DNA of 64,000 nt, taken from sequence record OR352939.1. The stretch is one strand, 5' to 3'. Position numbers and translations under genes: made by a program. The stretch's first letter is position 1. The number at the start of each line of letters is the position of its first letter. The stretch comes from Escherichia phage AV109. Below are positions 6,775 to 38,323 of this stretch, piece by piece. Below the pieces are notes generated by a model, which was not told the origin of the DNA, made no database searches, and saw only the letters and a program-made list of their open reading frames with translations.

Positions 6775-6802
6775 TTAGATTTCCTCAATTATCCATAGGA
6801 GC

Positions 6803-6832
6803 ATTATACTCTGCTCCCGAGAGTTTGTAAAC
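6803..6832 (-). promoter_or_regulatory. T4-type early promoter (GTTTAC / TATAAT); near-duplicate of promoter at 38292-38321
   Basis: minus-strand GTTTACAAACTCTCGGGAGCAGAGTATAATGCTC. Confidence 0.55.
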
Positions 6833-7056
6833 TATTTTACTAAAGATTCAATATACTCATGAAGAGCTTTAGTAGCTACTGCCCACTTATTCTGATATTC
6901 ATTTTTCAGATTAGCACGAGACTGAACTAACAAGCGGTCATTAGTCGGAGGCAAAGATTCTAATCGTTGAATCTGGCGCCCATAAATCATAGCCGCCATT
7001 TCAGATTCATAGATAAGCCCTTTAATGTATTCATGCTGTTCTTTAGTCATTGGCAT
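6832..7056 (-). CDS. hypothetical protein (74 aa)
   Basis: ORF. Confidence 0.4.
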   Translation of the reverse strand: MPMTKEQHEYIKGLIYESEMAAMIYGRQIQRLESLPPTNDRLLVQSRANLKNEYQNKWAVATKALHEYIESLVK

Positions 7057-7337
7057 TTTTCCTCTTTTAAACCACTACGATAATAACATAACATAGTCTT
7101 CTGGTCATGTACATATCTTTTTATGTCGTTTAACCAGATACGAAATTCTTGAGAGTCTTCAAATGGCATTCCAACCCATGGATTACCATCAATAACCTTT
7201 ACTTGCCATTTCTGGTTATATTCGGAAATAGGCGTAGGCCATGAAGGATGTAAAGTTTCTTTAGGGCTTAAGGGCACATCCTGGGCACATCCAGCCAAAA
7301 TGCCAATAGATAATACAACTGCGGTTAATTTAATCAT
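7047..7337 (-). CDS. outer-membrane lipoprotein, probable o-spanin (T4 PseT.2-like)
   Basis: signal peptide with lipobox ILAGC; directly downstream of a TM plus coiled-coil ORF; matches T4 spanin position between alc and pseT. Confidence 0.6.
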   Translation of the reverse strand: MIKLTAVVLSIGILAGCAQDVPLSPKETLHPSWPTPISEYNQKWQVKVIDGNPWVGMPFEDSQEFRIWLNDIKRYVHDQKTMLCYYRSGLKEEKCQ

Positions 7338-7690
7338 TCTGAGAGCTTCCTGAGGTCTTCTGCAAAGGAATCGAAGGACCTGTTGATTTGTTTTTCGACC
7401 AATCCTGGCTTACTTGCCACCACGTTCTTCTTCTTCGAATCCTGACGGAGCTTTTCATTTTCGGCCTTAAGTTGGTCAACTAAAACACGGTTCTTATAAG
7501 TCATTTCTTCGATTGACTGATATTGAACCTTGAAGTCGTCTAATACTTTAGCATTGTTTTTAGCGGTCTCTTTGACAGAAGCTAATTCAGTATTCAGCGA
7601 ATCGACTTTATGGTTCAGAAATGCTATTGTTACAGTAGCAACAACTGCAAAAGCTGCCACTACAATATATGATGCATTTACTTTAAGCAT
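7334..7690 (-). CDS. N-terminal TM plus coiled-coil protein, probable i-spanin (T4 PseT.3-like)
   Basis: hydrophobic segment IVVAAFAVVATVTIAFL followed by charged helical region; overlaps start of lipoprotein ORF. Confidence 0.6.
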   Translation of the reverse strand: MLKVNASYIVVAAFAVVATVTIAFLNHKVDSLNTELASVKETAKNNAKVLDDFKVQYQSIEEMTYKNRVLVDQLKAENEKLRQDSKKKNVVASKPGLVEKQINRSFDSFAEDLRKLSE

Positions 7691-8178
7691 GTTTGAATAA
7701 TCTCAATGATTTCGTCTCGGGATAATCCATTGATAAGAACTGTTTTAGGCCCGTCAGTTTGGATTTTGTATGATTCAAACAATACACACAACTCTTCTGC
7801 TGTATGATATGGGCTTGAGATTCCGAGACGGTTAAATTTGTCGGTAAGAGGGTCGCAAATAATATAGAATTTGATACCTGCGATATGTACGTTTGGTTGA
7901 CTAATATTAATGAACACATTAGCGTCATATTTAGTCAAATTGTTTTGAAGAAATTCTACCATAGAATTAACTGCTTCTGGCATCGCTTCGCGTTTCTCTT
8001 CAGCGTATCGGGTTGAATACTCTTTTTGTTTTACTTTCTTTTTAAGATTTTTGGCCAGTGTAACACGTAGGTCAGTAAGATAACCAACTGGACGTCCTTT
8101 CTTAAAGACCCGGATTCCGTCAGTTGTGTCTCCAAAAGCGTTTACGACCATATCGTTAGTAATCAATTGCATATTCAT
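7678..8178 (-). CDS. alc: Alc-like protein (inhibitor of transcription from cytosine-containing DNA), 166 aa
   Basis: size and position between rnlA and pseT region as in T4; start placed at ATG 8178 (MNMQLI) preceded by AGGAGA SD, not the track start 8220 which lies in the promoter. Confidence 0.55.
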   Translation of the reverse strand: MNMQLITNDMVVNAFGDTTDGIRVFKKGRPVGYLTDLRVTLAKNLKKKVKQKEYSTRYAEEKREAMPEAVNSMVEFLQNNLTKYDANVFINISQPNVHIAGIKFYIICDPLTDKFNRLGISSPYHTAEELCVLFESYKIQTDGPKTVLINGLSRDEIIEIIQTCLK

Positions 8179-8207
8179 AATTTTCTCCTCGTGTTGTTGA
8201 TAAACCC

Positions 8208-8237
8208 ATAGTATCACCATCCTTGGTGTTTGTAAAC
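8208..8237 (-). promoter_or_regulatory. T4-type early promoter (GTTTAC / TACTAT)
   Basis: minus-strand GTTTACAAACACCAAGGATGGTGATACTAT upstream of alc. Confidence 0.5.
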
Positions 8238-8239
8238 CG

Positions 8240-9373
<1,134 letters not shown>

Positions 9374-9392
9374 TCAGTTAGTTTTTTTTTAA

Positions 9393-9422
9393 ATTGTACC
9401 ACAATCCTTGTGGTATGTAAAC
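9393..9422 (-). promoter_or_regulatory. T4-type early promoter (GTTTAC / TACAAT)
   Basis: minus-strand GTTTAC at 9422-9417 and TACAAT at 9398-9393 upstream of rnlA. Confidence 0.45.
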
Positions 9423-9832
9423 TACTTTTTCTTATGTTGGATATTCCAAGGCGGGTTGAACTTTTTGATAAAAAGTGGTTCTTCAAGGTCCATTGTTGCG
9501 ATGGTCATTGAACCAAGTTCGTTGGTGACTGAAAGGTCAAAACATTGGCGGGCCCAGAATTCAACCTTTTTGCCTTGCATTAAGGCATCCAAAATCATAA
9601 GTGATTTTCTTGAATCTGAAGTCTGGTCTTTTCGATTTATGGCTGTTCGATAATAGTTAATGCGTTTCTTTAAATTCTTGGTTTTACCAATATACACAAG
9701 TTCGTCATCTATAGCAATAGCATATATAACATTTTTCTTATTAGGGGCATCAATGGTTTTAATTGTTGCATCTTCTAATAGCTCCAATTCTATATATTTA
9801 ATAAAGGAATATTCGGCGGCAATATCTTTCAT
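9422..9832 (-). CDS. denA: endonuclease II (GIY-YIG family, host DNA degradation)
   Basis: 136 aa as in T4; GIY-YIG-like VYIGKT motif; position between nrdB and rnlA. Confidence 0.8.
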   Translation of the reverse strand: MKDIAAEYSFIKYIELELLEDATIKTIDAPNKKNVIYAIAIDDELVYIGKTKNLKKRINYYRTAINRKDQTSDSRKSLMILDALMQGKKVEFWARQCFDLSVTNELGSMTIATMDLEEPLFIKKFNPPWNIQHKKK

Positions 9833-9840
9833 AATAAAGT

Positions 9841-9854
9841 GGGACCGAAGTCCC
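9841..9854 (-). other. UUCG-tetraloop hairpin (GGGAC-UUCG-GUCCC) between nrdB stop and denA start
   Basis: 5-bp GC stem with C(UUCG)G loop, 8 nt upstream of denA ATG; no clean U-tract. Confidence 0.45.
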
Positions 9855-9858
9855 GTCC

Positions 9859-10361
9859 TTAGAAATATTTTTTGTATGAATTGATTACATTTTGGTCTAC
9901 ATCATTATCAATTTGTGCGACAAGATAAGAACTGATTTCAACTTCCTGAGGAGCTGCTTGAACTAAATCAGAGTTCAGATATTCACGAATCCAAGGATAA
10001 GGATGTTTGGTCGGAGCATCAGTAATTGGACACGGCAAACCACACTGTTTCATACGAGACACAGTCAAGTAATCAACAAAAGCACACATACTCTGTGTAT
10101 TGATACCTGGACATGTACCGTCTTTAAAGAGGTGTGCAGCCCATTCCTTCTCTTGACTATTTACTTCCATAAAAATGTCAACTGCTTCTTGTTCACATTC
10201 TTTAGCAATTTGAACCCACTCATCACCATCAGTACCGGATTGAAGTTGACGGATAATGTACTGAGTACCCTTGAGATGGAGTTGTTCGTCACGAGCAATG
10301 AACTTCATAATCTTTGCATTGCCTTCCATAATTTCCATATTCTTATGGAAATTAAATGTAC
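9859..10361 (-). CDS. nrdB: ribonucleotide reductase small subunit NrdB, exon 2
   Basis: encodes ..CTFNFHKNMEIMEGNAKIMKFIARDEQLH.. C-terminal half; joins exon 1 in frame to give a 392-aa product. Confidence 0.75.
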
Positions 10362-10953
10362 CGTTATGTTCGATTGAGCTCGCTAATTCTCAACCCGTTC
10401 TCTTATGAACTGCTGCATATTACTATGCAGACCAGACTATATCACAATCCCGGAGGGATTCTCCCCATTTCGAGTCGCTTGACCCTACGTCCGAAGACTA
10501 GTCGTTGAACCTTGCTTTGCAATTGTCGCCGTGCCATCGTTTATATGTCGATGGTGATAAATCTTTCTTTTCACAATATGGACAATTCAATTGAATTCTA
10601 TTTGGATTTAATTTGCATCTGTCATTATGTTTTAGATAAAACCCAGGACCTTTACCAATGTGACCGCAGAAATCACATGTGATTTCTTTTTGTGCAGGAT
10701 GGGTTCCGTTCTTAACCATTTCTAATGTTTTTGCTGATGTTCTTCCATCAGAATCTTTAGGTATAGGCCCGTTAGCATCCATCCAAATTTTTCTATAATT
10801 CAATTGTGCATCCTCTTAAAAGTATAATCATATTTATTTTATAATATACTAATTAAAGGTGCAAGCAAAACCTTGGCTGCTAGTTTTCCTATAAAGGACT
10901 TTCCAGCAATTAAAGGAGTTTTCGATAAACGTTACCGTTTAAAGGCGCATTTT
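10362..10953 (-). ncRNA. group I self-splicing intron in nrdB (approx. boundaries)
   Basis: exon 1 frame hits a stop immediately after conserved YVSFA; exon 2 resumes conserved NrdB sequence ~590 nt downstream; proposed splice sites follow exon-U / intron-G rule and restore frame; T4 nrdB has a similar intron. Confidence 0.65.
10498..10803 (-). CDS. intron-encoded endonuclease I-TevIII-like ORF (101 aa, probably truncated)
   Basis: ORF inside nrdB intron with Cys/His zinc-finger-like motifs (CDFCGH, CPYCEK); short compared with full-length I-TevIII of RB3. Confidence 0.55.
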   Translation of the reverse strand: MNYRKIWMDANGPIPKDSDGRTSAKTLEMVKNGTHPAQKEITCDFCGHIGKGPGFYLKHNDRCKLNPNRIQLNCPYCEKKDLSPSTYKRWHGDNCKARFND

Positions 10954-11629
10954 ACGCAAAAGATACATAAAAACGAATAGCTTCCAATGCATTGATGACA
11001 TGCAAACAAAGATAAAGAGATTTCATTAGGTCTCGTTTAGCTTCGGTCTCTTGTTTAATAGCTCGGTTTAAACGAAGGTCGGCATCAGGAGATTCTTTAG
11101 CTTGTTCTACAAATTCTTTAGCATTTTCCCAATTACGAGTCTTGACTAGAACATCATCATAATATTTACCTATTGATTCAGCTCGTTTCATGATTGCTTC
11201 GTCTAATACAATCTCATCAAATACTTTGGATGGATCGGTATAAAGATTTCGCATAATATGAGTATACGAACGAGAGTGAATAGTTTCACTGAATGTCCAT
11301 GTTGCAACCCACGTATCTAATGAAGGGTCGGAAAGCAGTGCCATAAGTACCGCAGATGGGGCCCTGCCTTGGATAGAATCTAATAATGATTGATACTTAA
11401 GGTTGTTTGTAAAGATGTCCTGTTGGAACTGAGGAAGCTTATTGAACTGGGCCGAATCCAGCATCAGGTTTACTTCTTCTGGTCGCCAGAAAAACGACAA
11501 TTGCTTTTCAATAAGTTCTTCAAAAACTTTATGTCGCTGAATATCATAACGTGCGAGGCCAAGACCAGAACCAAAGAACATTGGTTCATTCAAAACATCG
11601 ACTTGTTGTGTGTTAAAAACTGTACTCAT
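10954..11629 (-). CDS. nrdB: ribonucleotide reductase small subunit NrdB, exon 1
   Basis: N-terminal 225 aa ending ..EAIRFYVSFA, matching class Ia R2. Confidence 0.8.
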
Positions 11630-11684
11630 TATATTTTCTCACTTAGTTATTAACTCATCCATGAGTAAATTATAATCAAAAGTC

Positions 11685-14589: not shown

Positions 14590-14653
14590 TTTGTAGTATC
14601 AACGGGATAGTATTTATCCCGTTAATTTTATTATACACTTTTAAACTGAAGCG

Positions 14654-14908: not shown

Positions 14909-14909
14909 T

Positions 14910-15221
14910 TTATACCGCCATTTTAGCTTTGATAGCTGGATGTGATTCGTAATTTTTAAGAACGAAATCAGAATGTGTCATCGTTCCGGTAACCCAGTCC
15001 ATTTGGATTTTTGTAGGCCAATTCTCAAAATTACTAGGCCAATTAATTTCAAGAGAACATAACTCTTTAGGTTCACGACGAAGAACTTCTTTGCATTGTT
15101 CTACATGATTGCTGTAGATATGCGTGTTGCCGCCTGAGAACACTAAATCACCTGGGATAAGGTTACACATCTTCGCTACAATATGTGTCAAGGCAGCGTA
15201 CGAGGCGATGTTGAACGGTAG
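14910..15221 (-). CDS. td: thymidylate synthase, exon 2
   Basis: encodes LPFNIASYA..HIVAKMCNLIPGD..SGGNTHIY..; exon 2 begins one codon after the intron-terminal G of AUG, as in T4. Confidence 0.9.
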   Translation of the reverse strand, partial: LPFNIASYAALTHIVAKMCNLIPGDLVFSGGNTHIYSNHVEQCKEVLRREPKELCSLEINWPSNFENWPTKIQMDWVTGTMTHSDFVLKNYESHPAIKAKMAV

Positions 15222-15368
15222 CATTATGTTCAGATAAGGTCGTTAATCTTATCCCGGAATTATATCCAGCTGCATGTCACCATGCAGAGCAGACTATATC
15301 TCCAACTTGTTAAAGCAAGTTGTCTATCGTTTCGAGTCACTTGACCCTACTCCCTAAAGGGATAGTCG

Positions 15369-16112
15369 TTAGGCATTTATGTAGAACCAATTCCACTTAT
15401 CAGATTTTACACGGTAAGTAACTAATCCTGATGAAATTTCAAAATGTCTAGCCGCATCGGCTGCACATTCAAAAATAATCCCATCGCATGAAATCTTTTT
15501 GATGTTAGCTGGCTTTTTGCCTTTCATCTTTTCAGATAGTTTAGTTTTAGTTTTTTCTGAATGTTTGTGATTAAAGAACGGGTTATTTTCACCTGAACGT
15601 TTTCGGCACTTTCCACAAGTATCGGCCGAAGATGGTATGCGAACACCGCATTTACAAAACTTGTGGTTTTCTGGATTCCATCGGCCATTTTTACTTCCGT
15701 GTTTACCATAAAGAGCTTTCCGACCATCAGGACCAAGCTTAAGCATCTTAGCTTTAACAGTTTCAGCTCGTTTCTTAGCAATTTCTTCTTTTAATGGATG
15801 ATTTGAAAGCACATCGCCAAAAGACGCATCAGCAATATTATATCCATTAATTTTAGAATTTAGCTCTTTAATCCAAAAATTTTCTCGTTCAATAATCAAA
15901 TCTTTCTCATATGGAATTTCTTCCAGTATAGAGCATTCAAAAACATTACCATGTTTATTAAAAGACCTTTGAAATTTTATAGAAGAGTGAACACCGTTTT
16001 CAAGGTCTTTAAAATGTCTCTTCCATCTTTTCTCAAAATCTTTAGCACTTCCAACATACACTTTACCGTTTAAAGTGTTTTTAATCTGATAAATTCCGCT
16101 TTTCATAAACAC
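15369..16112 (-). CDS. I-TevI: intron-encoded GIY-YIG homing endonuclease I-TevI
   Basis: near-identical to remembered T4 I-TevI (KSGIYQIKNTLN.KVYVGSAKDFEKRWKRHFKDLE ... DAARHF.ISSGLVTYRVKSDKWNWFYINA); true start probably the third codon (MKSG). Confidence 0.9.
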   Translation of the reverse strand: MFMKSGIYQIKNTLNGKVYVGSAKDFEKRWKRHFKDLENGVHSSIKFQRSFNKHGNVFECSILEEIPYEKDLIIERENFWIKELNSKINGYNIADASFGDVLSNHPLKEEIAKKRAETVKAKMLKLGPDGRKALYGKHGSKNGRWNPENHKFCKCGVRIPSSADTCGKCRKRSGENNPFFNHKHSEKTKTKLSEKMKGKKPANIKKISCDGIIFECAADAARHFEISSGLVTYRVKSDKWNWFYINA

Positions 16113-16129
16113 CTCTTTTTATATAGAAG

Positions 16130-16137
16130 TATTTATT
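16130..16137 (-). promoter_or_regulatory. variant late-promoter-like motif (AATAAATA) upstream of I-TevI
   Basis: 7/8 match to TATAAATA on minus strand inside the td intron. Confidence 0.25.
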
Positions 16138-16237
16138 AAAGGGTAGTCCTACAATTTAGCACGGGATTGTCTACTAGAGAGGTCCCCCGTTTAGATAGAT
16201 TACAAGTATAAGTCACCTTATACCTAGGCCTAAATTA

Positions 16238-16786
16238 ACCTAAGAAAACATCTACACTGCGTTGATACCATTGTAAATCAAGATGTCCATTACGCACATT
16301 AAATTGATAGAACATATGACAAGGAGGAAGAGCCATTTGATTTATTTCAGCCGGATTCCAGGCAGAAACAATTTGACGACGATCAGTTGGTAATTTTTTA
16401 ATACGGTCGATTGTTTCAACTAATTGGTCTACACCACCAAAATCACGCCATTGCTTACCATAAATAGGACCAAGTTCGCCGCTATGATATCCAAGGTCTT
16501 TTGCCTGATTTTCATAGTTGTCGTCCCAAATAGTTTTACCTTGAATAAGACTACCATGAGTACGAATACGCAAATCATTAACATTTGTAGAGCCAGACAT
16601 GAACCATAATAGCTCAGCAATACAAGCTTTCCATGCAAGCTTCTTGGTTGTTACTGCAGGAAATCCTTTAGTCAGATCCCATCGCAATTTAGTTCCGAAC
16701 AGGGCAATAGTGCCGGTACCTGTACGGTCGTCTGTTTCGTAGCCATTTTCTAGGATATCATTAATCAGGTATTGGTATTGTTTCAT
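16238..16786 (-). CDS. td: thymidylate synthase, exon 1
   Basis: 183 codons ending ..QRSVDVFLG then in-frame intron stop; exons sum to 286 aa as in T4. Confidence 0.9.
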
Positions 16787-17370: not shown

Positions 17371-17373
17371 TTT

Positions 17374-17685
17374 TTATTTCCTCAGATTTTTCTTAACAAC
17401 TTTCCAATCAGCTTTAAACGATTCAACATCAGAGTGGTGAATCCAGAATCCTGCACTTTCACCATCTTCGTAGAGTGGACATCCATCGCATTCTTCGTTC
17501 CAACCCATTTCACGTAAAGCTTCTTCAGCTTGTTCAAGGAGTTCAGCGTCTTTACCAACGATGTTGAAGTACCATTTACCTCTAACTTCAGAATCTTTGA
17601 TGCTCTGGCGTTGCAATCTCATTTTATTCTCCTTCACTTTTGATTTGATAGGGCTACTATAACATAACCCTATCTGATTATACAC
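17374..17685 (-). CDS. hypothetical protein (103 aa)
   Basis: ORF between 32-side ORF and frd. Confidence 0.45.
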   Translation of the reverse strand: MYNQIGLCYSSPIKSKVKENKMRLQRQSIKDSEVRGKWYFNIVGKDAELLEQAEEALREMGWNEECDGCPLYEDGESAGFWIHHSDVESFKADWKVVKKNLRK

Positions 17686-18077: not shown

Positions 18078-18106
18078 TTTGATTTCCTCATGTTGTTGAT
18101 AGGTCT

Positions 18107-18135
18107 ATACTAACACATCCAGGGAAGAAGTAAAC
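18107..18135 (-). promoter_or_regulatory. T4-type early promoter (GTTTAC / TAGTAT)
   Basis: minus-strand GTTTAC 18135-18130, TAGTAT 18112-18107, followed by AGACCTATCAACA leader. Confidence 0.5.
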
Positions 18136-18166: not shown

Positions 18167-18184
18167 GGGAGACCGAAGTCTCCC
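18167..18184 (-). terminator. intrinsic terminator hairpin GGGAGAC-UUCG-GUCUCCC + UUUUGAG downstream of gene 32
   Basis: 18-nt element identical to copies at 1295-1312 and 27165-27182; 6 nt after gene 32 stop. Confidence 0.7.
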
Positions 18185-21119: not shown

Positions 21120-21126
21120 GTTTACC

Positions 21127-22044
21127 TCAGAATTCATTAATTACACTTGTTAATTTAGAAAGACCAGATTTTACAAAGTATGAATAAATCTTGCCTTTAG
21201 GTTGTGGTTTATATGAGTTATAATACTCTATAATGGTTGAAGCAATATTATCAGGGATATAATCAAAATCAATGAGAACCAAATTTTCTTGATACCGTTT
21301 ATATTCTTCTGCACTTAATAATACTTCAGCTTGAGAACGGTCATTAGCAATTGCTTCAATAATCGTTGTTTTCATGCTCGGAGTTCGTTCACCATCAACT
21401 CTGGTAAACCAGAAGTCACCACGAACTCGAACAGATGCAACGCCGTCTTTACGGTCACCTTTAAGAATTTTAGTCATGCAATCAATTTCAGCAGAACCGT
21501 TCTTAATTTTAACCCATTTTTTCTGTGGTGGCGACCACTGTTTAACGTTAGGATATTTGTGTAATTGTGTAAAGTCACCATCTGATGCAACAATACATAC
21601 CTTATGACCGGCTAATGACAAATATTTAGTTAATACACCGATATGGTCATCCGCTTCATACTTGTCAATATCCATTACAACGTATGGCATGTATTTCTTA
21701 ATCTCATCAACAACTTGATGGAGTGCAGTAAAATATCCTTCCCAATCCCACTTTGAAGCTTCACGATCGGTTTTACGATTTTTCTTGTAATAGTAAGCAA
21801 AATCACGTCGCCAATAACCTGAAGTAGCATTATCCATACACAATACAAATTTTGTATAGCCTTGCTTACGGAACATCACTACGTTTTTACGAATTGAATT
21901 CAAGATTACATGGCGAACCATCGGAACAGTAATTTTATCGCCGTCTTCAAAGTTGTTTAATGCGGCTGCCAATGCAATGTTACTAAAGTCGGCAAGTGCA
22001 ATACCTTCTTTGTAATCTTCATCCAACATCATTTCTAAATCCAT
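21127..22044 (-). CDS. rnh: RNase H (5'-3' exonuclease / flap endonuclease)
   Basis: 305 aa near-identical to remembered T4 RNase H. Confidence 0.92.
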   Translation of the reverse strand: MDLEMMLDEDYKEGIALADFSNIALAAALNNFEDGDKITVPMVRHVILNSIRKNVVMFRKQGYTKFVLCMDNATSGYWRRDFAYYYKKNRKTDREASKWDWEGYFTALHQVVDEIKKYMPYVVMDIDKYEADDHIGVLTKYLSLAGHKVCIVASDGDFTQLHKYPNVKQWSPPQKKWVKIKNGSAEIDCMTKILKGDRKDGVASVRVRGDFWFTRVDGERTPSMKTTIIEAIANDRSQAEVLLSAEEYKRYQENLVLIDFDYIPDNIASTIIEYYNSYKPQPKGKIYSYFVKSGLSKLTSVINEF

Positions 22045-22076
22045 ATGAACCTCTTGTTCAGTTAGTCAACTTGTCT

Positions 22077-22106
22077 ATAGTAACACACTCATTTGAAAGC
22101 GTAAAC
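22077..22106 (-). promoter_or_regulatory. T4-type early promoter (GTTTAC / TACTAT) for rnh
   Basis: minus-strand GTTTAC 22106-22101 and TACTAT 22082-22077. Confidence 0.5.
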
Positions 22107-22147: not shown

Positions 22148-25100
22148 ATGGCCGACATCAAACGTAAGTTCAGAGCCGAAGACGGTCTGGACGCCGGTGG
22201 CGACAAGATTGTTAACGTAGCATTAGCCGACCGTACAGTAGGTACTGATGGCGTAAACGTTGACTTCCTGGTACAAGAAAACACCGTTCAAGTATATGAT
22301 TCTACACGTGGATATAACAAAGGATTTGTTGTTCTTTATGACAACCGTTTATATCAAGCAATAAATGATATCGTGTCTCCTTCCGGGGCATTTAACCTTT
22401 TACAATGGCGTGCAGTTCGTACTGATACACAATGGATAACTGTCGCTTCTGGGACTTATCAACTTTCTTCAGGTGAATCGATTTCGGTTAACACTGGTGC
22501 CGGCAATGATATGGTTTTCACGTTGCCAAATACTCCTGTTGATGGTGATACTGTTGTTTTGGCTGATATTGGTGGAAGAACCGGGACAGTTAAAGTACAG
22601 ATTAACGCGTCTGTACAGAGTATTTTAAACTTTAGAGGTGAACAAGTTCGTACGGTTTTAATGACGCGTCCGCGTTCACAACTATTGTTTGTGTTTAGTA
22701 ATCGTTTGTGGCAGATGTATATTACCGATTATGGTAAAGAATCAATCACTGTTACACCTGCGACACCATATCAAGCACAAGCAAATGATTTTATCGTTCG
22801 TCGTTTTACTAGTGCAGCACCAATCAACATTACACTTCCACGTAATGCTAACAATGGTGATATAATCAGCCTAGTCGATTTAGATAGATTAAACCCACTG
22901 TATCATACAATTGTTAAAACATTTGATGATACAACGTCTATTGGTGAAGTCGGGACTCATATTGCCGAAGGCAGAAATGACTCTGACGCGTTTTTTGTTT
23001 TTGATGCCGCAAATAGTTTATGGCGTATATGGGAAGGCGACCAGAAATCGCGTCTTCGTATTATCCGTGCGGATTCAAATATTCGTCCAAATGAAGAAGT
23101 TCTTATTTTTGGCACAAATAACGCTACAGCCGGAACTATTAATCTTACGCTGCCTTCCGGAATTTTGAGTGGTGACACTGTTAAAATTTCAATGAACTAC
23201 ATGCGTAAAGGCCAAACAGTAAAAATTAAAGCTGCCGAAGGTGATACAATTGCTTCTTCTGTCGCATTACTTCAGTTCCCTAAACGTTCTGAATATCCAC
23301 CTGATGCTCAATGGGTTTCTGTTACTGAACTAGAATTCAATGGCACTACTTCATATGTTCCTGTGTTAGAATTAGCGTATATCGAAGACACTGTTGCTGG
23401 TACACGTTATTGGGTTGTTCAACAAAACGTCCCTACAGTAGAACGTGTTGATGCTGGAACTGATGCTACACGAGCTCGTTTAGGTGTTATTGCTCTTGCT
23501 ACTCAAGCGCAAGCAAATGTTGATTTAGAGAATACTCCAGCTAAAGAAGTGGCTATTACTCCGGAAACATTGGCAAATCGTACAGCAACTGAAGCTCGAC
23601 GTGGTATCGCTAAAATTGCTACAACAGCACAAGTTAACCAGAATTCCACAGCATCATTTGTGGACGATACTATTGTTACGCCTAAAAAACTAAATGAGCG
23701 TACAGCAACTGAAACTCGTCGCGGTCTTGCTGAAATTGCTACTCAGACCGAAACCGATGCTGGTCTTGATGACACAACGATTATTACACCTAAGAAATTG
23801 CAGGCACGTCAGGGTTCTGAAACACTATCGGGTATAGTTAAATATGTATCAACTACTTCTGCTACTCCTGCTGAAACTCGTGGGGCTGCAGGCACTAACG
23901 TTTATAATAAAACCGTAAATAATTTAACTATTTCTCCTAAAGCCCTTGACCAATATAAAGCAACTTATGCTCAACAAGGTGCAGTAATTTTAGCTGTTGA
24001 AAGTGAAGTAATTGCTGGTCAATCCCAAGCAGGTTATTCTCACGCTGTAGTAACTCCTGAAACACTACATAAGAAAACTTCTACTGATGGACGTATTGGT
24101 TTAATTGAAATTGCTACGCAAGCAGAAACTAATGCTGGGACTGATTATACACGTGCAGTAACGCCTAAGACGTTAAATGATAGGAAAGCTACGGAAGGAT
24201 TATCCGGCATAGCCGAACTTGCTACGCAAGTCGAATTTGATACTGGAACTGATGATACTCGTATCTCGACTCCACTGAAAATTAAAACTCATTTTGATTC
24301 TTCTGACCGTACCAGTGTTAATTCTGATTCCGGACTTATTGAAGAAGGAACCTTGTGGAACCATTATACTCTTGATATTTCTAAAGCAAATGAAACACAA
24401 CGTGGTACACTTCGCGTAGCGACCCAGGCAGAATCTAATGCAGGAACTTTAGATGATGTTCTTATTACTCCTAAAAAGCTTTTAGGGACTAAGTCCACTG
24501 AAACGTCTGAAGGCGTAATTAAGGTTGCTACTCAGGCTGAAACTGTAACAGGAACTTCTGCTAATACTGCTGTATCTCCTAAGAATTTAAAATGGATTGT
24601 CCAGAAAGAACCAACATGGGCTGCTACTACAGCAATTCGCGGATTCGTTAAAACTTCATCCGGTTCTATTACATTCGTTGGTAATGATACAGTTGGTTCA
24701 ACACAACCTTTAGAATCATATGAGAAAAATAGCTATGCAGTATCACCATATGAATTAAACCGTGTATTAGCAAATTATTTGCCGTTAAAAGCAAAAGCTG
24801 TAGATAGTAATTTATTGGATGGTCTAGATTCATCTCAGTTCATTCGTAGGGATATTGCACAGACGGTTAATGGTTCACTAACCTTAACCCAACAAACGAA
24901 TCTGAGTGCCCCTCTTGTATCATCTAGTACTGCTACGTTTGGTGGTTCAGTTTCGGCAAATAGTACATTGACTATTTCTAATACGGGAACAGCTACTCGA
25001 CTGATTTTTGAAAAAGGACCTCAGTCCGGAACAAATCCTGCTCAAACGATGACTATCAGAGTTTGGGGAAATGAATTTGGTGGTGGTTCAGATACAACAC

Positions 25101-27159: not shown

Positions 27160-27164
27160 ATTTA

Positions 27165-27182
27165 GGGAGACCGAAGTCTCCC
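27165..27182 (+). terminator. hairpin GGGAGACCGAAGTCTCCC + AUUUUUG after gene 35
   Basis: third copy of the 18-nt palindromic element, followed by T-tract and then the gene 36 late promoter. Confidence 0.55.
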
Positions 27183-27189
27183 ATTTTTG

Positions 27190-27197: not shown

Positions 27198-27221
27198 TGG
27201 TATACATATAAGGAGACAACT

Positions 27222-27884: not shown

Positions 27885-27892
27885 GAGGACTT

Positions 27893-31666: not shown

Positions 31667-31667
31667 A

Positions 31668-31685
31668 AGAGGGCTTCGGCCCTCT
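31668..31685 (+). other. stable hairpin AGAGGGC-UUCG-GCCCUCU between genes 37 and 38
   Basis: 7-bp stem with C(UUCG)G loop immediately after gp37 stop and before gp38 SD. Confidence 0.5.
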
Positions 31686-31696
31686 AAGGATTTTTA

Positions 31697-32488: not shown

Positions 32489-32519
32489 TTTTGAATAAAT
32501 ATCCTTAAAAGGAGGTATT

Positions 32520-33179
32520 ATGGCAACACCAAAAGTGGCATTTTCACCTAGTGATATTCTATTTGGGTTGCTAGATCGTATTTTCAAAGATAACGCTACT
32601 GGAAAGGTTTTAATGTCCCGAGTAGCGGTAATTATTCTTTTGTTCCTAATGGCACTAATATGGTACAAAGGAAGTATTTTGCTGGATTATTATGTAAGAG
32701 CTAAGTATGATACTTATACTGAAATAATCCAAAAAGAACGAGCTTTACGTTTTGAATCTGCGGCTCTAGAACAACTGCAAATAGTTCATATCTCATCTGG
32801 TGCAGATTTTAGTGCTGTGTATTCTTTCAGACCTAAAAACTTAAATTATTTTGTCGACCTTATAGCTTATGAAGGCAAACTACCTAGCACAATTTCTGAA
32901 AAGTCCCTTGGCGGATTCCCGGTGGATAAAACGGCCAATGAATATATAATTCATTTAAGTGGCCGTCATTTCTCATCTAAATCAGAATTTGCATTTTTGC
33001 CTACAAAATCTAAGACTGCCGAACTTTCTTATATGTATAGTTGTCCATACTTTAATTTGGATAACATCTATGCTGGAACTGTGACGATGTATTGGTATAA
33101 GGGGAGTAATATACTTGAGGAAGATCGCTTAGCGGCTATATGCAACCAAGCGATCCGAATACTAGGAAGGGCTAAATAA
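32520..33179 (+). CDS. t: holin T
   Basis: 219 aa near-identical to remembered T4 holin (SFSPSDILFG, one TM segment, large periplasmic domain). Confidence 0.92.
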   Translation: MATPKVAFSPSDILFGLLDRIFKDNATGKVLMSRVAVIILLFLMALIWYKGSILLDYYVRAKYDTYTEIIQKERALRFESAALEQLQIVHISSGADFSAVYSFRPKNLNYFVDLIAYEGKLPSTISEKSLGGFPVDKTANEYIIHLSGRHFSSKSEFAFLPTKSKTAELSYMYSCPYFNLDNIYAGTVTMYWYKGSNILEEDRLAAICNQAIRILGRAK

Positions 33180-33452
33180 TTAGTTGTTAGAATACATCGC
33201 TAAATGACGATAAATATTTTCAAAACCTTCATTGAATTCACTAATCAGTGTTTTCTTTTCTTCGGCAGTTAAATTTGTAATTAGTTTTCTGAACGAATTC
33301 TGATTTAACTGCCGACCATCTTTTTTAATTCCAATCTCATTCAAGAATCCGATGAAACTTGCTCGGTCTTCAACAATATCTTCCCTAGAGAATTTAATCA
33401 AAATAGAAGCAATAGTAATAATTTCACGTACGATTTCAATGTCTTTATTCAT
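33180..33452 (-). CDS. asiA: AsiA anti-sigma70 factor
   Basis: 90 aa near-identical to remembered T4 AsiA. Confidence 0.92.
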   Translation of the reverse strand: MNKDIEIVREIITIASILIKFSREDIVEDRASFIGFLNEIGIKKDGRQLNQNSFRKLITNLTAEEKKTLISEFNEGFENIYRHLAMYSNN

Positions 33453-33498
33453 AACGTTTTATTCATTCCACTTAGTTGATATGGATATAGTACCATTA

Positions 33499-33714
33499 TC
33501 AGTGTTGATTGTAAACGGCTTTTTCTACGCTTTTAACGTAATTGGTGTAGTCTTCCTGTTCGTACGAGTGTAAGGCCAAGAACGGAACTAATAGTTCATT
33601 ATAGACTAAAGCCTCACGCTCACGTTCGGCCTCTACTACGTTCTGAAGATTATGACTCATATTGTTCCTTATAACTATCAATATAGTCCTGTATGTCGAA
33701 GAACGATATTTCAT
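33499..33714 (-). CDS. hypothetical protein (71 aa; alternative start at 33660 gives 53 aa)
   Basis: ORF between asiA and upstream array. Confidence 0.35.
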   Translation of the reverse strand: MKYRSSTYRTILIVIRNNMSHNLQNVVEAEREREALVYNELLVPFLALHSYEQEDYTNYVKSVEKAVYNQH

Positions 33715-34036
33715 ATTCTAGGGCATTAAGAGCCTGTTCTTCGGTGTAGTCAGAACCAAATACAATAGTGATTTCACCTGGTTTAGAATGACTGAAATCA
33801 ACACTAAACTCAATTCTAGAGCAGACTTCATCTTCCATATCTATGATAACACTACGATACACTTCTCGGTTAACCTGATAAAGCTCTGCAAGTTCTTCAC
33901 AACGAATAACAAGTTCAGTGGCAGGATTTTCTTTGATTTTAGTAAGCATAGTCTTTACCCTTATGTTTTTGTTTACGTTTAGATTGAAGTTCTGATTTCT
34001 TTTTGTCCTTATGGACGGAAGCCTTATTGAAATCAT
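33650..34036 (-). CDS. hypothetical protein (128 aa; start uncertain)
   Basis: ORF; ATGA overlap with upstream stop at 34033-34036. Confidence 0.4.
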   Translation of the reverse strand: MISIRLPSIRTKRNQNFNLNVNKNIRVKTMLTKIKENPATELVIRCEELAELYQVNREVYRSVIIDMEDEVCSRIEFSVDFSHSKPGEITIVFGSDYTEEQALNALEYEISFFDIQDYIDSYKEQYES

Positions 34037-34251
34037 GTTTTGCTACAAGATTGTTCATAATGCTTTATAACCTCGTTTAAACATTTATCGGTAAAAGAAA
34101 ACTTTTTAGCCACAGAACATTCGATAATGTGCTCTTTCAAATCTTTAGAGTCGGTATATCCCATCTCAGTAATAAAGTGGCGAATTAAAGCTTTATTCTT
34201 ATCATTAACAGAATTAAAATAATCTGCTTTAGAATCAATTATTCTCATCAT
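34033..34251 (-). CDS. hypothetical protein (72 aa)
   Basis: ORF. Confidence 0.4.
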   Translation of the reverse strand: MMRIIDSKADYFNSVNDKNKALIRHFITEMGYTDSKDLKEHIIECSVAKKFSFTDKCLNEVIKHYEQSCSKT

Positions 34252-34516
34252 CTAATTTCCTTAATTGATATTGCAACGAGCTAATAATTTCTTCGTTCAT
34301 TTTAATATACATGTCACGCAAGAAAGGTTTTAACCCATCACGAATAATTGCTAACGTATCACCTTTACATAAATTAACCAAATAAGGATGGTCTAAAGCG
34401 TCCCAACCAGGCTGATTAGCATACATACCATAGTTTTCTTCCATCATATGATTAAGACGTTTGATATCTTGGATACGTGATTCAATAGCATCTTTCTGGA
34501 GTTGTTTAATATTCAT
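34235..34516 (-). CDS. hypothetical protein (93 aa)
   Basis: ORF in motA-asiA interval. Confidence 0.4.
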   Translation of the reverse strand: MNIKQLQKDAIESRIQDIKRLNHMMEENYGMYANQPGWDALDHPYLVNLCKGDTLAIIRDGLKPFLRDMYIKMNEEIISSLQYQLRKLDDENN

Positions 34517-34977
34517 TAATAAAGGTCCTCTGAATAAAGTTCTTTCTCACTTCCACCACGTTCAATACGTACCTGTCCAGCATACGTTGCAATAATCATT
34601 GCTTCTTCACGCGTCCAGTAATTAGAGTATTGGTCAATAAAGCCTTGGTCGTCACCACAAACTTGTTGCGAGACTAATTGAGGACCAACTATATCAAGTA
34701 CTTCAGCCATATCTTTAGAGTAATGACGAACTCCAGGAATAACTAGAGTTCCACCACTCTTCAATTTAAACCTATTAGCCGCACATACTATAACACGTTG
34801 AACTTTTTGGTCATTATTCCAATAGCACGTTTGCCAACAGATTTCAGGAACTTCATTCATTATATCATCAGCAGAATAATTATAACCGTAGGACTGGAAT
34901 TTTTCTGCTAGACTTTCAGGAGTCTCACGAGACAAGGCCAAATCTAATAGCTCTAAACGTTCTTTAAATGATTTCAT
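34516..34977 (-). CDS. hypothetical protein (153 aa)
   Basis: ORF. Confidence 0.45.
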
Positions 34978-35303
34978 TTAAACCATTCCTTAATACGTTG
35001 CCAAATAGATTTTTGTGCTTGTTTATTTACACCAATCGAACGAATAATCGGTTGTGACTGCTGATATTCTTTATAATCTTCTTTATAGATTTCGTAAGCG
35101 GCATCAACAAATGAACTGATCGCTGCCATGTAGTTTTTACGAAGGCCAAATGGAGCGTCATTATTTTCACGAATAACCGTATATTGGCCTGCTTTAATCT
35201 TTACAATTGTCCCTAAATAAGCCCCGTGGTACCAAATATCCCATCCTTCCTGAGTAGGTTCTGCACATTTACGAAGTTCGTTAATAATATTCAGCTTATT
35301 CAT
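34974..35303 (-). CDS. hypothetical protein (109 aa)
   Basis: ORF directly downstream of motA. Confidence 0.45.
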
Positions 35304-35313
35304 TATGTATTCC

Positions 35314-35946
35314 TCACAGTACGTTAGTTACAAGGGTAATGATTTCTTTGGACACATTAGGGAAGTCAATGTAAGTATATTTACCACCGATCTTAATCTT
35401 AACATCATTTTCAAGAGAAGTAAACAGCTTTGATTCAGTTTCTGACATGTTGTATGCAAAGATTCTAAGAGAACCATCTCGACGAATTTCGATCTGACGA
35501 ATACCTAGAACTCGTTTTGCAAATCGAACTTCCAAGTTACTACGGTTTTCACCGATTTCTTTAACTTCAACTTTATCTTTAATATTTTCAAAAACAAAGT
35601 TTGCTAGTTCATGCATTTCAGGAGTAACTCCACGTGCTTTTCTGGTGTTACGTTTCTGAAGAAGTTCTGGAGCATTTTCTTGAGCAAATAGGTCTGCAGC
35701 TTTTTGGATAATATCCATTGCTTCGCCTGTTGCTATAAGTCCATCACCAGATTTTTCGACTAAACCTTTCTTAATCAATACACCAATGTTAGAGTTAACA
35801 ACCGATGCATTGTATTCTGCCTCCAGAGCTTCACGGACATTGGCAGCAGTGGTGAAGTTGTTCTTAATGATATAAACCATTATTGCAGCAGTTTTTTCAT
35901 TCAGAGCGTTTTCAGAAGCTTTGATGATGTAAGTAACTTTAGACAT
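35314..35946 (-). CDS. motA: MotA middle-transcription activator
   Basis: 210 aa near-identical to remembered T4 MotA N-terminus. Confidence 0.9.
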   Translation of the reverse strand: MSKVTYIIKASENALNEKTAAIMVYIIKNNFTTAANVREALEAEYNASVVNSNIGVLIKKGLVEKSGDGLIATGEAMDIIQKAADLFAQENAPELLQKRNTRKARGVTPEMHELANFVFENIKDKVEVKEIGENRSNLEVRFAKRVLGIRQIEIRRDGSLRIFAYNMSETESKLFTSLENDVKIKIGGKYTYIDFPNVSKEIITLVTNVL

Positions 35947-35985
35947 TTTATTTCTCCAATTTGGTTGTTTTGTTTTGATAGGTCT

Positions 35986-36014
35986 ATAATATCATGTTTG
36001 AAGCATATGTAAAC
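35986..36014 (-). promoter_or_regulatory. T4-type early promoter (GTTTAC / TATTAT) for motA
   Basis: minus-strand GTTTAC 36014-36009, TATTAT 35991-35986, AGACCTATCAAAA leader. Confidence 0.5.
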
Positions 36015-36039
36015 TGTTTTGTGAGAAAAATGCACAAAA

Positions 36040-36055
36040 GGGAGCCGAAGCTCCC
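36040..36055 (-). terminator. intrinsic terminator hairpin GGGAGC-UUCG-GCUCCC + UUUUGUGCAUUUUU
   Basis: 6-bp GC stem with C(UUCG)G loop and U-tract, ~75 nt downstream of gene 52 stop. Confidence 0.65.
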
Positions 36056-36131
36056 TAATCATGTTTGTCCAACCAATACAGCCAAATCACTAGTGCAGCT
36101 ATTGCGCCGAGAAATCCTAAGGCTATGGCAC

Positions 36132-37457
36132 TCAAAGTGCCTCCAAGTCTTTAGTGTACTCTGTCACAACATCAGTAGACTTCCAATACTCATTTTCTTC
36201 TTTCTTAGCTTTAGCTTCTTCTGCTAGTTTACGTGCTTCATCGGAAGTGATATGGAAGATGTTAAGACCTACCAGTTTATCGACATGTTCTTTATACATT
36301 TCGATTTGTGCGAGCTCTTCAGTCAAAGCTTTACGAGTCTTGCCCTGAATCACAATTTCGCCGTTGATAACTTTTTTGATGAAGTGTGCCTTAGCAAAAG
36401 CCAGTTTAAATGCTTTTTCAGATTCAAGGATTTTGTTGTCAATACGTTTCTGAACGTAAGTCTTACGGACTTCAACAAAATCTTTGATTAAGTCCACTAC
36501 GTTATCGTAGACAGCTAATTTACCCTTTTCATTAATCACTGTGATGTTTTGTGAACGACGTTCGATGAGACTAAAATCTTTCATGATTTTTTCATGACGT
36601 AGCTCTTCATCATCAGGAAGCGAGTACTCTTTACGGAACTTCACCTTAAACCCAAAGCCGTGTTCACCGCAATCATCTTCCCATGAGATTAGACCTTTGT
36701 CTTCCAACGGGTCAAGAACCTTACTCACATACGTTTCACGGTCGAATTTATATGGGATTTCAGTTATCTGCATTTGAGTGCGAGATGTGAACTTATATGT
36801 TCCGTGAATCTCATAACGCCCATCAACTTCATGTACTTCACCACGGAATTCCGGGAATTCAACTTTTGGCTTAGTGACATTTTTACCTTGAAGAGCTTGT
36901 AATACAGCCTTTTTGACTGATTTAAAACTATGAGGCAGAATATTTGTTGCGTAACCGGTTGCAATACCAGAGACACCATTCAAAAGAACTGTCGGAATAA
37001 TAGGAAGATAGAATTTTGGTGGAATGTGTTCTTTATCTTCATGAGCTGGAGCATATTCAGTATCTTTATATACGTTATAGAAATTTTTACTTACACGAGC
37101 AAAAATATAACGAGATGCTGCAGCTTTTTGGACTGTTCGAGAACCAAAGTTGCCTTGACCATCTAACAGTGGATAGTTGTTGTTCCATGTGTTAGCCATC
37201 AATGCACCTGCATCTTGTGCAGAAGATTCACCATGGTGATAACCTAAATCGGCAACACCACCCGCAATTGACGCAAGTTTATGAAATTTTTCTTTATTAC
37301 CACGAGCCAAATCTAACGCACGATGGACCACAAAACGTTGAACCGGCTTAAATCCATCAATCATGTTTGGGATTGCACGGTTTTCAACGGTGTACATCGC
37401 ATATGCTAAGGCTTCGTTATCAATAATACTTTTTAGATTACGAGAATTCAATTGCAT
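36132..37457 (-). CDS. 52: DNA topoisomerase II medium subunit gp52 (GyrA-like breakage-reunion domain)
   Basis: 441 aa; matches remembered T4 gp52. Confidence 0.92.
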   Translation of the reverse strand: MQLNSRNLKSIIDNEALAYAMYTVENRAIPNMIDGFKPVQRFVVHRALDLARGNKEKFHKLASIAGGVADLGYHHGESSAQDAGALMANTWNNNYPLLDGQGNFGSRTVQKAAASRYIFARVSKNFYNVYKDTEYAPAHEDKEHIPPKFYLPIIPTVLLNGVSGIATGYATNILPHSFKSVKKAVLQALQGKNVTKPKVEFPEFRGEVHEVDGRYEIHGTYKFTSRTQMQITEIPYKFDRETYVSKVLDPLEDKGLISWEDDCGEHGFGFKVKFRKEYSLPDDEELRHEKIMKDFSLIERRSQNITVINEKGKLAVYDNVVDLIKDFVEVRKTYVQKRIDNKILESEKAFKLAFAKAHFIKKVINGEIVIQGKTRKALTEELAQIEMYKEHVDKLVGLNIFHITSDEARKLAEEAKAKKEENEYWKSTDVVTEYTKDLEAL

Positions 37458-37461
37458 ATTT

Positions 37462-37602
37462 TCACCATATTAATGAACGAATAACCATTATAACATCTGA
37501 AATGAAAAGCACTACTTGGATTAGTCCAAACGTCACACCGTAGTACAGAACCGTAAGCAACAACAAGAGCCCGAAGGCTCCTGCTAAGATTTTCTTAATC
37601 AT
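37462..37602 (-). CDS. small hydrophobic protein (46 aa), not in ORF track
   Basis: hand translation MIKKILAGAFGLLLLLTVLYYGVTFGLIQVVLFISDVIMVIRSLIW; TAATG overlap with upstream ORF. Confidence 0.35.
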   Translation of the reverse strand: MIKKILAGAFGLLLLLTVLYYGVTFGLIQVVLFISDVIMVIRSLIW

Positions 37603-37748
37603 TACTCGCCTTTTAACACGTTAAGAAGAGCTAAGACCGCTAAGGTACCTTGTGATACGGCCTGTTGAAATACTGTTGTTTCGCCTGTAACTAAAGTGTT
37701 AACGAATAAAAACGACCAACACAACAATGCAATAATCCATGCTACCAT
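37602..37748 (-). CDS. small hydrophobic protein (48 aa), not in ORF track; possibly Ac-like
   Basis: hand translation MVAWIIALLCWSFLFVNTLVTGETTVFQQAVSQGTLAVLALLNVLKGE preceded by GAGGTAATTAAA SD-like sequence. Confidence 0.35.
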   Translation of the reverse strand: MVAWIIALLCWSFLFVNTLVTGETTVFQQAVSQGTLAVLALLNVLKGE

Positions 37749-37800
37749 TTTAATTACCTCAAAAATAAATTAAAGGCCCAACTTAATAGGCCCGTATAAA

Positions 37801-38247
37801 TTAATAACTCTGCAGAATGAATTTAAAGTTATCAGCCAGAAGACGGTTCATTTCAGTGAGTGTTTGATATTCTGATGTATGGTTGCGAGTGAATGCCAGA
37901 GCCAATTGACCTTTACCGTAACCAGTGGTCAGTGGTTTCATGTTCTTAGCTGCAACAAAGATTACATCATATTCAATATTGTTAGTGCCCATGGTACGGG
38001 CTAGTTGCGAACGGCCTTGACGAATGTGAGAAAGAATTGCATCCAACCCTTGTTTAGAACGTTGACGTCCTACAAAGAATCGTGCTGCAACTTGACGCCA
38101 GTCGGATGAACCTTTAACAAAGAAGTAAAAACCTTCACGAGAACGAAACTCTTTAGAAACTTCAGAACCGTATTCACCATTACGAACTACTGCAACAACT
38201 TCACCGCCAACTGCCAGAAGGTCTTTACGAGTTAAATATTTGGACAT
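37801..38247 (-). CDS. ndd: Ndd nucleoid-disruption protein
   Basis: 148 aa; strongly matches remembered T4 Ndd ([70 protein letters not shown]). Confidence 0.85.
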
Positions 38248-38291
38248 GCTAATTTCCTCAATTGATTAATGTTTTTGTAATCCATGAGAGC

Positions 38292-38321
38292 ATTATACTC
38301 TGCTCTCAAGAGTTTGTACAA
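38292..38321 (-). promoter_or_regulatory. T4-type early promoter (TTGTAC / TATAAT) for ndd; near-duplicate of 6803-6832
   Basis: minus-strand TTGTACAAACTCTTGAGAGCAGAGTATAATGCTC. Confidence 0.5.
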
Positions 38322-38323
38322 TT

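Follow-up and report, generated by a model that had tools for sequence, protein, structure and literature searches.

The primary work on the early promoters of bacteriophage T4 is reportedly that of Liebig and Ruger 1989, Wilkens and Ruger 1994 and Miller et al. 2003. These promoters combine UP, -35, TGn and -10 elements with 'additional regions of consensus' (Hinton 2010, PMC2988021). Early promoters have also been predicted in RB69, where a preference for C at positions -3 to -1 was noted (Nolan et al. 2006, PMC1524935). Here, promoters of this type are described in a 64,000-nucleotide stretch of Escherichia phage AV109 (record OR352939.1), which is called the window. An original prediction, made from the letters alone, held that more than twenty minus-strand elements of the window fit the T4 early pattern, that many share a motif downstream of the -10, and that they had spread by duplication or recombination. 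The best explanation of the whole, and a very probable one, is that these RB69-like early promoters reside in recombining cassettes of promoter, stem-loop and Shine-Dalgarno (SD) sequence.

Cassettes of this kind are known. In RB49 and phi1 they were defined as early promoter/stem-loop (PeSL) cassettes, in which the stem-loop may precede the -35 and -10, sit between them or overlap them, stems can include G-T pairs, and recombination excises small genes (Arbiol et al. 2010, PMC2839356). Earlier T4 observations (Repoila et al. 1994; Mosig et al. 1998) are cited in that paper. The model was then extended to T4 and PST, the ndd region included (Comeau et al. 2014, PMC4122927). A second described system consists of hairpins that sequester the ribosome-binding site and contain an internal promoter, as in T4 e, soc, 49 and I-TevI (Uzan and Miller 2010, PMC3014915).

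Compared with the early promoters of T4 and RB69, the window has the same UP/-35 GTTTAC/TGn/-10 architecture, C preference and downstream genes, and nothing essential differs. With the PeSL cassettes of RB49/phi1, T4/PST and KVP40/nt-1 it shares the order of AT-rich tract, early promoter, stem-loop, SD and ATG; the presence of multiple copies per genome, which resemble one another from the AT-rich tract as far as the SD/ATG; stem-loops located before, within or across the -10, in which G-T pairs are tolerated; and cassette-to-cassette recombination that deletes or swaps small genes, seen here at one locus, the 50.7-kb scar explained below. The stems themselves differ. Those of RB49 are polyG/polyC and were shown to terminate transcription, whereas those of the window are 5–10 bp long, diverse in sequence and lack U tracts. 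In addition, according to a figure legend for T4/PST the stem-loops immediately precede the promoter (PMC4122927), while many of those in the window, and that of the T4 motB promoter (PmotB), enclose the -10. The original observation is correct in substance and its interpretation largely right; the kind of feature is already known, and the recombination idea is not new because it is the published PeSL model (PMC2839356, PMC4122927).

The pattern GTTTAC-N16-19-TANNNT was counted on both strands of the whole window and in shuffled sequence. There were 23 matches, 21 of them on the minus strand, versus 4.27 ± 2.26 in the shuffles (maximum 12). A position weight matrix (PWM) was built from these sites and the window scanned with it, as had been proposed with the original prediction; this recovered 24–25 minus-strand sites scoring 16–35 bits, including the -35 variants GTGTAC, ATGTAC and TTGTAC. 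On the plus strand the matrix gave one weak match at a loose threshold and zero at a stricter one. A scan of positions 44001–64000 for the generic sigma-70 pattern TTGACA/TATAAT showed no enrichment (73 matches versus 68 expected); it is therefore the T4-type consensus that discriminates. The purine-rich SD and start codon that had been described after the promoters were found downstream of 24 of the 25 sites, the sole exception being the asiA promoter, where there was no SD match. The downstream genes include orthologues of alc, rnlA, rnh, asiA, motA, ndd, cef, motB (MotB-like), mod, imm and sp, and seven of the sites are published RB69 promoters, whose Pe identifiers are given in the list that follows. 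On the agreement in consensus, the early-gene orthologues and these seven correspondences, the assignment of the elements as predicted sigma-70-dependent, T4-type early promoters holds.

The predicted features are listed below. Sites are named by the lowest coordinate of the -10 hexamer on the minus strand (with or without a preceding P), dG is the folding free energy, and ORF stands for open reading frame.

1223–1258, minus strand: early promoter, ORF 823–1188; -35 at 1253–1258, -10 at 1230–1235, predicted +1 at about 1223, no hairpin enclosing the -10
1295–1312: canonical UUCG terminator upstream of the promoter at 1223–1258
4672–4708, minus strand: early promoter 4679 (RB69 Pe:134561); embedded stem-loop with arms 4689–4696 and 4671–4678 and the -10 in the loop, dG -11.6, z -3.4
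6796–6832, minus strand: early promoter 6803 (RB69 Pe:136687), family 1, first member of the near-identical pair; -35 at 6827–6832, -10 at 6803–6808, ORF 6475–6774
6813–6818 and 6797–6802, minus strand: stem of promoter 6803, GGGAGC with GCTCCT
8201–8237, minus strand: alc early promoter 8208 (RB69 Pe:138093); spacer with ACCAAGGATGGT, palindrome ACCA/TGGT
9386–9422, minus strand: rnlA early promoter 9393 (RB69 Pe:139277); spacer hairpin CCACA-AGGAT-TGTGG
17649–17685, minus strand: early promoter 17656, -35 GTGTAT; 9-bp stem 17666–17674/17647–17655, dG -16.3, z -7.4
18100–18135, minus strand: early promoter 18107, exact CCTATCAAC; terminator upstream at 18167–18184
22070–22106, minus strand: rnh early promoter, from pattern and PWM
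33480–33516, minus strand: asiA early promoter, from pattern and PWM
35979–36014, minus strand: motA early promoter 35986, from PWM; terminator upstream at 36040–36055
38281–38321, minus strand: ndd early promoter 38292 (RB69 Pe:165022), family 1, second member of the pair; -35 TTGTAC at 38316–38321, -10 at 38292–38297
38302–38311 and 38281–38291, minus strand: stem of ndd promoter 38292, dG -13.9, z -3.75
38544–38582, minus strand: early promoter 38553 (RB69 Pe:165283); embedded stem GGTAGGATT/AGTCCTACT
39057–39094, minus strand: early promoter 39065 (RB69 Pe:165795); embedded stem GTAGGACT/AGTCCTAT
49137–49173, minus strand: cef early promoter, -35 ATGTAC; embedded stem GGTCT/AGACC
49702–49752, minus strand: early promoter 49724 of a MotB-like gene; spacer UUCUCCUUUGGUU pairs with the SD-containing AACCAGAGGAGAA in read-through RNA only, dG -21.1, z -6.6
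50674–50737, minus strand: deletion scar; partial promoter (-35 and spacer) 50711–50737 fused to the complete promoter 50674–50710 of a second MotB-like gene
53844–53879, minus strand: early promoter, -35 GTGTAC, from PWM
54584–54620, minus strand: early promoter 54591, -35 GTGTAC, upstream of an ADP-ribosyltransferase gene; spacer starts AAACTCTT, like family 1
55222–55257, minus strand: early promoter upstream of an ADP-ribosyltransferase gene, from pattern and PWM
56702–56738, minus strand: early promoter, from PWM; terminator upstream at 56753–56774
60583–60621, minus strand: sp (spackle) early promoter 60592; embedded stem GATGGACT/AGTCCTATC
60896–60932, minus strand: early promoter, ORF 60626–60874, from pattern and PWM
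61326–61362, minus strand: early promoter, ORF 60936–61304, imm region, from pattern and PWM
61883–61933, minus strand: early promoter 61905, exact CCTATCAAC; spacer UUCUCCAGUAGUUG pairs with the SD-containing CAACUACUGGAGAA in read-through RNA only, dG -20.9, z -7.1
62315–62390, minus strand: terminator 62375–62390 abutting early promoter 62338 (62331–62367); spacer CUUCCUCU pairs with the SD AGAGGAA, z -1.9, weak

When the sites were aligned on the -10, the extended -10 was conserved (T-15 and G-14, each in 18 of 20), as were positions around the start site: C-3 in 15/20, T-1 in 18/20 and A+1 in 17/20, plus T+2, C+3 and A+5. Upstream, a UP-like tract is T-rich at -48 to -46 and then has A in 12–19 of the 25 sites at -44 to -39. 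With GTTTAC, TGn, TAnnAT and a spacing of 17–18 bp, the consensus fits the T4 type. A cassette opens with the T-rich and then A-rich tract, followed by GTTTAC(A), of which TTTACA is read as the -35, the 17/18-bp spacer, TGn and TAnnAT, and continues through a start-site motif (C-3 C-2 T-1 A+1 T+2 C+3 .. A+5) and a leader of about 22 nt, predicted to be unstructured, to GAGG and ATG. Because of the spacing and the T-1/A+1 consensus, host RNA polymerase would be expected to start transcription at the A located 7 nt past the -10. From this predicted start to the ATG the leaders span 20–44 nt, with 17 of 24 being 20–23 nt. The leaders of the 24 promoters are A-rich and predicted to be unstructured (minimum free energy (MFE) about 0), and their length is strikingly uniform.

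The shared downstream motif, CCTATCAAC, had been called an invariant initial transcribed motif lying 2–10 nt after the -10. It is strongly enriched and conserved. It is not invariant, as it is exact at just 2 of the 25 promoters (18107 and 61905), with at most one mismatch at 9 and at most two at 13. Nor is its distance variable: the motif always begins at the fourth base past the -10. It extends from -3 to +6 relative to the predicted start, so that half of it (C-3, C-2 and T-1) lies upstream, making it a start-site motif and not a purely transcribed one. TATC occupies -1 to +3 in 14 of the 25 sites versus 0.13 expected. For comparison, the window matrix was used to retrieve promoters in IMG/VR loci, giving 97 representatives of less than 80% identity for the pairing tests described below; 79 representatives from other T4-like contigs were left once promoters matching either search pattern had been removed. 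In these 79, TATC is present in register in 32 and the same positions are conserved. For the +2 to +6 part (TCAAC) and the fixed register, no description was found in the T4/RB69 early-promoter papers that were read.

About one third of the cassettes in addition contain an inverted repeat, with one arm in the 3′ half of the spacer (about -25 to -17), the other at -6 to +3 and the -10 in the loop. This repeat is the 'stem-loop' of the published PeSL cassettes. In the window, pairing of the spacer (-30 to -13) with its own -6 to +3 segment is stronger than that of chimeric combinations (-4.57 versus -2.60 kcal/mol; z -5.2, 0/5000). The 97 representatives give a complementarity z of -11.3, or -9.0 when family 1 is left out. 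Upstream and far-downstream control segments were null in the window, and the controls in the larger set were null as well. In the common register, -17:-6 to -23:+1, consensus bases are complementary (G-20 with C-3 and T-23 with A+1), and Watson-Crick cells number 81/175 as opposed to 40–52 in slid registers. Approximately 8–10 window cassettes have stems enclosing the -10, and in the window test many promoters had no hairpin. Seven of eight hairpins tested gave folding z values of -3.2 to -7.4, with 62338 being weaker (-1.9). Part of the start-site motif is the 3′ arm of this repeat, and is thus a product of both descent and selection on structure. The +2 to +6 part is not accounted for by the hairpin; its pairing with the spacer in a fixed register (pairs -24:+2 to -26:+4) was unsupported, with z at most 1.7.

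One such stem is that of family 1, to which promoters 6803 and 38292 belong. Here, seven variable bases pair with the bases that follow TATAAT, placing the -10 in the loop. Across the family 99.1% of cells are paired, versus 35–50% in slid registers, and three pairs have changed on both sides (at one pair, GC 14, CG 13 and UA 3). A compensatory difference also separates the two window copies, GGGAGC/GCTCC and GAGAGC/GCTCTC, with T4 PmotB having GGGACC/GGTCCC. Cleavage sites for RegB (GGAG) in the family-1 loop were considered and ruled out, as the variants GGGACC, GGGGTC and GAGAGC do not contain GGAG.

Two results point to the RNA level. First, the internal mismatches of 33 distinct stems (about seven independent families) are 12 G.T and 0 A.C on the sense strand, which indicates sense RNA. 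Second, an upstream canonical terminator and an embedded hairpin are nearly mutually exclusive (1/20 versus 30/75; Fisher p 0.0026 in 95 representatives), and the hairpin is absent from all five window promoters that have upstream UUCG terminators. Those separate upstream hairpins have the build of an intrinsic terminator, with a G+C-rich stem and a U tract directly after it. Terminators acting in the antisense direction were ruled out by the G.T/A.C asymmetry and by the distance to the T run. A transcript that begins at the promoter of the cassette itself does not include the 5′ arm; folding of the hairpin is therefore limited to read-through RNA from upstream, where the hairpin may act like the upstream terminator hairpins and attenuate, end or stabilize upstream transcripts. 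A role at the RNA level on read-through transcripts is what we infer from these two patterns and from the covariation.

Several observations weigh against this reading. The embedded stems have no U tract, TATCAAC or ATGGAT following instead, and a minus-strand terminator scan gives no call, which indicates that they are not canonical intrinsic terminators. The energies of sense and antisense duplexes for the -10 hairpin differ by only -0.11 kcal/mol (not significant). What supports a reading at the RNA level is the G.T/A.C count together with the exclusivity with terminators, and within the window taken by itself the latter does not reach significance (Spearman p 0.43). TATC is present in the hairpin-free promoters 18107 and 35986; thus, the hairpin is not the whole explanation of the motif. 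The IMG/VR sample was gathered around two promoter patterns and includes related genomes, a bias reduced by clustering at 80% identity and by dropping the pattern matches. Finally, for this phage both the start sites and a possible role in termination or attenuation are read from sequence.

Alternatively, the inverted repeats could act in DNA, as cruciforms or hairpins that pre-melt the -10, as sites for a dimeric regulator such as an early-promoter shut-off factor, or as recombinase hotspots. The repeats are symmetric around the -10, the sense/antisense comparison is neutral, the mechanism of T4 early-promoter shut-off is described as unknown (PMC2988021), and Arbiol et al. speculate on a DNA-binding recombination protein (PMC2839356), all of which would suit such a role. 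It is nevertheless unlikely, given that the sense-strand mismatches are exclusively G.T, that the repeats avoid promoters with upstream RNA terminators, and that they are confined to roughly a third of the promoters. Furthermore, the stems covary freely, with GC, CG and UA at a single pair, which argues against a sequence-specific protein site.

At three promoters the predicted pairing reaches the SD. In 49724, 61905 and 62338 an anti-SD sequence in the spacer pairs with the SD, and transcripts from the own promoter are unstructured; the effect is pronounced in 49724 and 61905 (dG about -21, z about -7, own-transcript MFE 0) and weaker in 62338. Spacer pairing with +4 to +30 gives a z of -3.8 in the larger set, and comparison of sense and antisense energies for this long-range pairing is confounded by base composition. 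The arrangement is that of T4 e, soc, 49 and I-TevI, with the 5′ arm upstream of the promoter and the 3′ arm over the SD, and as there the read-through RNA is predicted to be folded and the proximal-promoter transcript open. In the T4 cases late or middle promoters delay expression, whereas in the window the promoter is early and its own spacer supplies the 5′ arm. As the pairing covers the SD, it is proposed that these genes would be translated only from own-promoter transcripts.

More tentatively, the stem-loop found in about a third of T-even early promoters, whose 3′ arm ends at the start site, could be a distinct functional RNA element, not a terminator, that marks read-through RNA by its origin; this is possible, though doubtful. 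Read-through transcripts would fold, leading to 3′-end formation or stabilization, processing or translational silencing, and own transcripts would stay open. If true, such insulation would turn every cassette, together with its gene, into a self-contained unit, which would account for the free shuffling of cassettes.

Evidence for such shuffling begins with the pair that had been described as near-identical duplicates. Promoters 6803 and 38292 are indeed identical at 29/31 positions over the stretch that runs from the TAC of the -35 to the fourth base after the -10; extended through ATGGAT, the identity is 36/41. Their -35 hexamers differ, being GTTTAC and TTGTAC, respectively. Both carry AATTGAGGAAAT at the ribosome site, and the genes that follow are a 99-amino-acid ORF for 6803 and ndd for 38292. 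The 65-nt core of P6803 matched 731 phage records, with 3–4 places per Mosigvirus genome, and in T4 and RB14 its best match was the motB early promoter. An exact-pattern search of IMG/VR (TACAAACTCT-N7-AGAGTATAAT) returned 32 family-1 sites that align as one cassette of about 60 bp. This cassette stands upstream of seven unrelated protein clusters (BLASTP E<1e-4), namely MotB, Ndd and five others. A protein-anchored IMG/VR search that started from the gene following P6803 returned one locus. Further sub-families are formed by 18107/61905/49724 and by 39065/38553/60592/17656. In addition, the T4 cef promoter has CAGTAGTTGA...TCAACTACTG around its -10, which is the stem family of P61905 (window 61883–61927), a promoter of a different gene; a cassette is therefore shared at non-orthologous positions.

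Deletions tell a similar story. A spacer motif had been said to recur near 8214–8226 and to be tandemly duplicated at 50690–50731. The recurrence was found, with ACCAAGGATGG at 8217–8227 and 50720–50730 and CCAAGGATGG additionally at 50693–50702, all on the minus strand. The duplication is not a local one; at this place two separate promoters have been joined by a deletion of 533 bp. In RB69 the order is dexA - PmotB.1 - motB.1 - ORF012c - PmotB - motB, and PmotB.1 and PmotB share CCAAGGA.GG.TGGAGTATAA. In the window, PmotB.1 up to GGAG is joined to the start of PmotB, and motB.1 and ORF012c (533 bp) are deleted. Judged by this alignment, the 50.7-kb feature is a deletion scar between the paralogous promoters that flank motB.1 in RB69. 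Phage AV115 has a different deletion that leaves a single chimeric promoter, and both deletions, at this one locus, have their breakpoints inside promoter cassettes. The T4 motB gene is driven by a family-1 cassette and the RB69-like motB by the CCAAGGATGG cassette; that is, orthologous genes carry non-orthologous promoters. In the ndd region, no indel polymorphism was found among Mosigviruses. On the best explanation, the 40–70 bp that cassettes share cause them to recombine, which places cassettes before unrelated genes, yielding the pair 6803/38292, and deletes genes lying between two cassettes, yielding the scar.

Could the similarity instead reflect pure convergence, in which selection for host RNA polymerase contacts acts without copying or recombination? 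A large part of what the elements have in common is consensus (-35, TGn, -10 and start-site positions), and the same consensus extends across distant T4-like phages. However, in column shuffles, which preserve the weight matrix and break linkage among positions, the variance of pairwise identity never reached the observed 24.3 (maximum 21.4 in 2000), indicating promoter sub-families beyond the consensus. Likewise, 6803 and 38292 share 24 of 28 non-hexamer positions, and a pair as similar arose in just 3 of 5000 shuffles. Convergence would also have to place an arbitrary 18-nt spacer, AAACTCT-stem-AGAG, before seven unrelated genes and 3–4 times per Mosigvirus genome, and deletion junctions within cassettes. 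It is thus quite improbable, and the claim of spread by duplication or recombination, not convergence alone, is borne out by the sub-families, the one cassette before seven unrelated families, the motB cassette swap and the two deletion alleles. That the embedded stem-loops are functionless by-products, for example of palindrome-generating recombination or of slippage at cassette joining, as the capacity of cassette junctions to create repeats (the 50.7-kb scar) and the many hairpin-free promoters might suggest, is very improbable, because orthologous promoters of motB (GGGACC/GGTCCC versus GGGGTC/GACCCC) and of ndd (GAGAGC/GCTCTC versus GGGGTC/GACCCC) carry compensatory double substitutions, which require selection on pairing.

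The terminators form repeat families too, as a UUCG-tetraloop stem, GGGAGACTTCGGTCTCCC (or GGAGAC..GTCTCC), recurs four times (1295–1312, 18167–18184, 27165–27182 and 62375–62390). Three copies are just upstream of early promoters and one is between tail-fiber genes. Some further matches to the promoter pattern were noted. A site within the motA coding region (35396–35425, minus strand) has a good -35/-10 match (22 bits), lacks the start-site motif (block score -24) and is not followed by SD and ATG; it could have arisen by chance or could serve the downstream genes as an internal promoter. Matches at 21120–21147 and 59899–59929 on the plus strand and at 22230–22258 on the minus strand are in coding sequence with poor -10 context, and on that basis were taken as chance and rejected as promoters.

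The window is that of an RB69-like Mosigvirus. Its closest record is Escherichia phage AV114 (OR352944.1), to which a 6-kb segment is 100% identical; the first indel (1 base) is near 14629, and with the further ones the two sequences are about 28 bases out of step by 61.9 kb. RB69, a different isolate, is approximately 97% identical in the ndd region tested. Nearly all genes outside the tail-fiber block are on the minus strand, and these are orthologues of T4 early and middle genes. On this strand nrdB and td (9859–11629 and 14909–16785) are each annotated in two pieces with homing-endonuclease ORFs between them, which implies group I introns; a search of the whole window at Rfam gathering thresholds matched no family, Intron_gpI included. 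The AV114 record starts alc at the ATG 8220–8218 (minus strand), within the promoter spacer (aaggATGgtg) and upstream of the -10. An alternative ATG at 8178 (minus strand) is preceded by a GAGGAG SD and gives 166 amino acids. Because the deposited ATG is inside the promoter spacer and that at 8178 has an SD, the start given in the record is likely to be an error.

The cassettes are of practical use in annotation, where they point to genuine early transcription units and genuine start codons, such as the probable alc start at 8178. What is added here to the published model is quantitative evidence, in the form of covariation, G.U bias and terminator exclusivity, that points to selection on the promoter-embedded stem-loop, whose function is a modest question. 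The dexA-motB locus, with three allelic states and breakpoints within promoters, is a clean example that confirms the PeSL model in another T-even lineage. The cassettes also explain differences in the presence or absence of small genes among the RB69-like phages of therapy collections.

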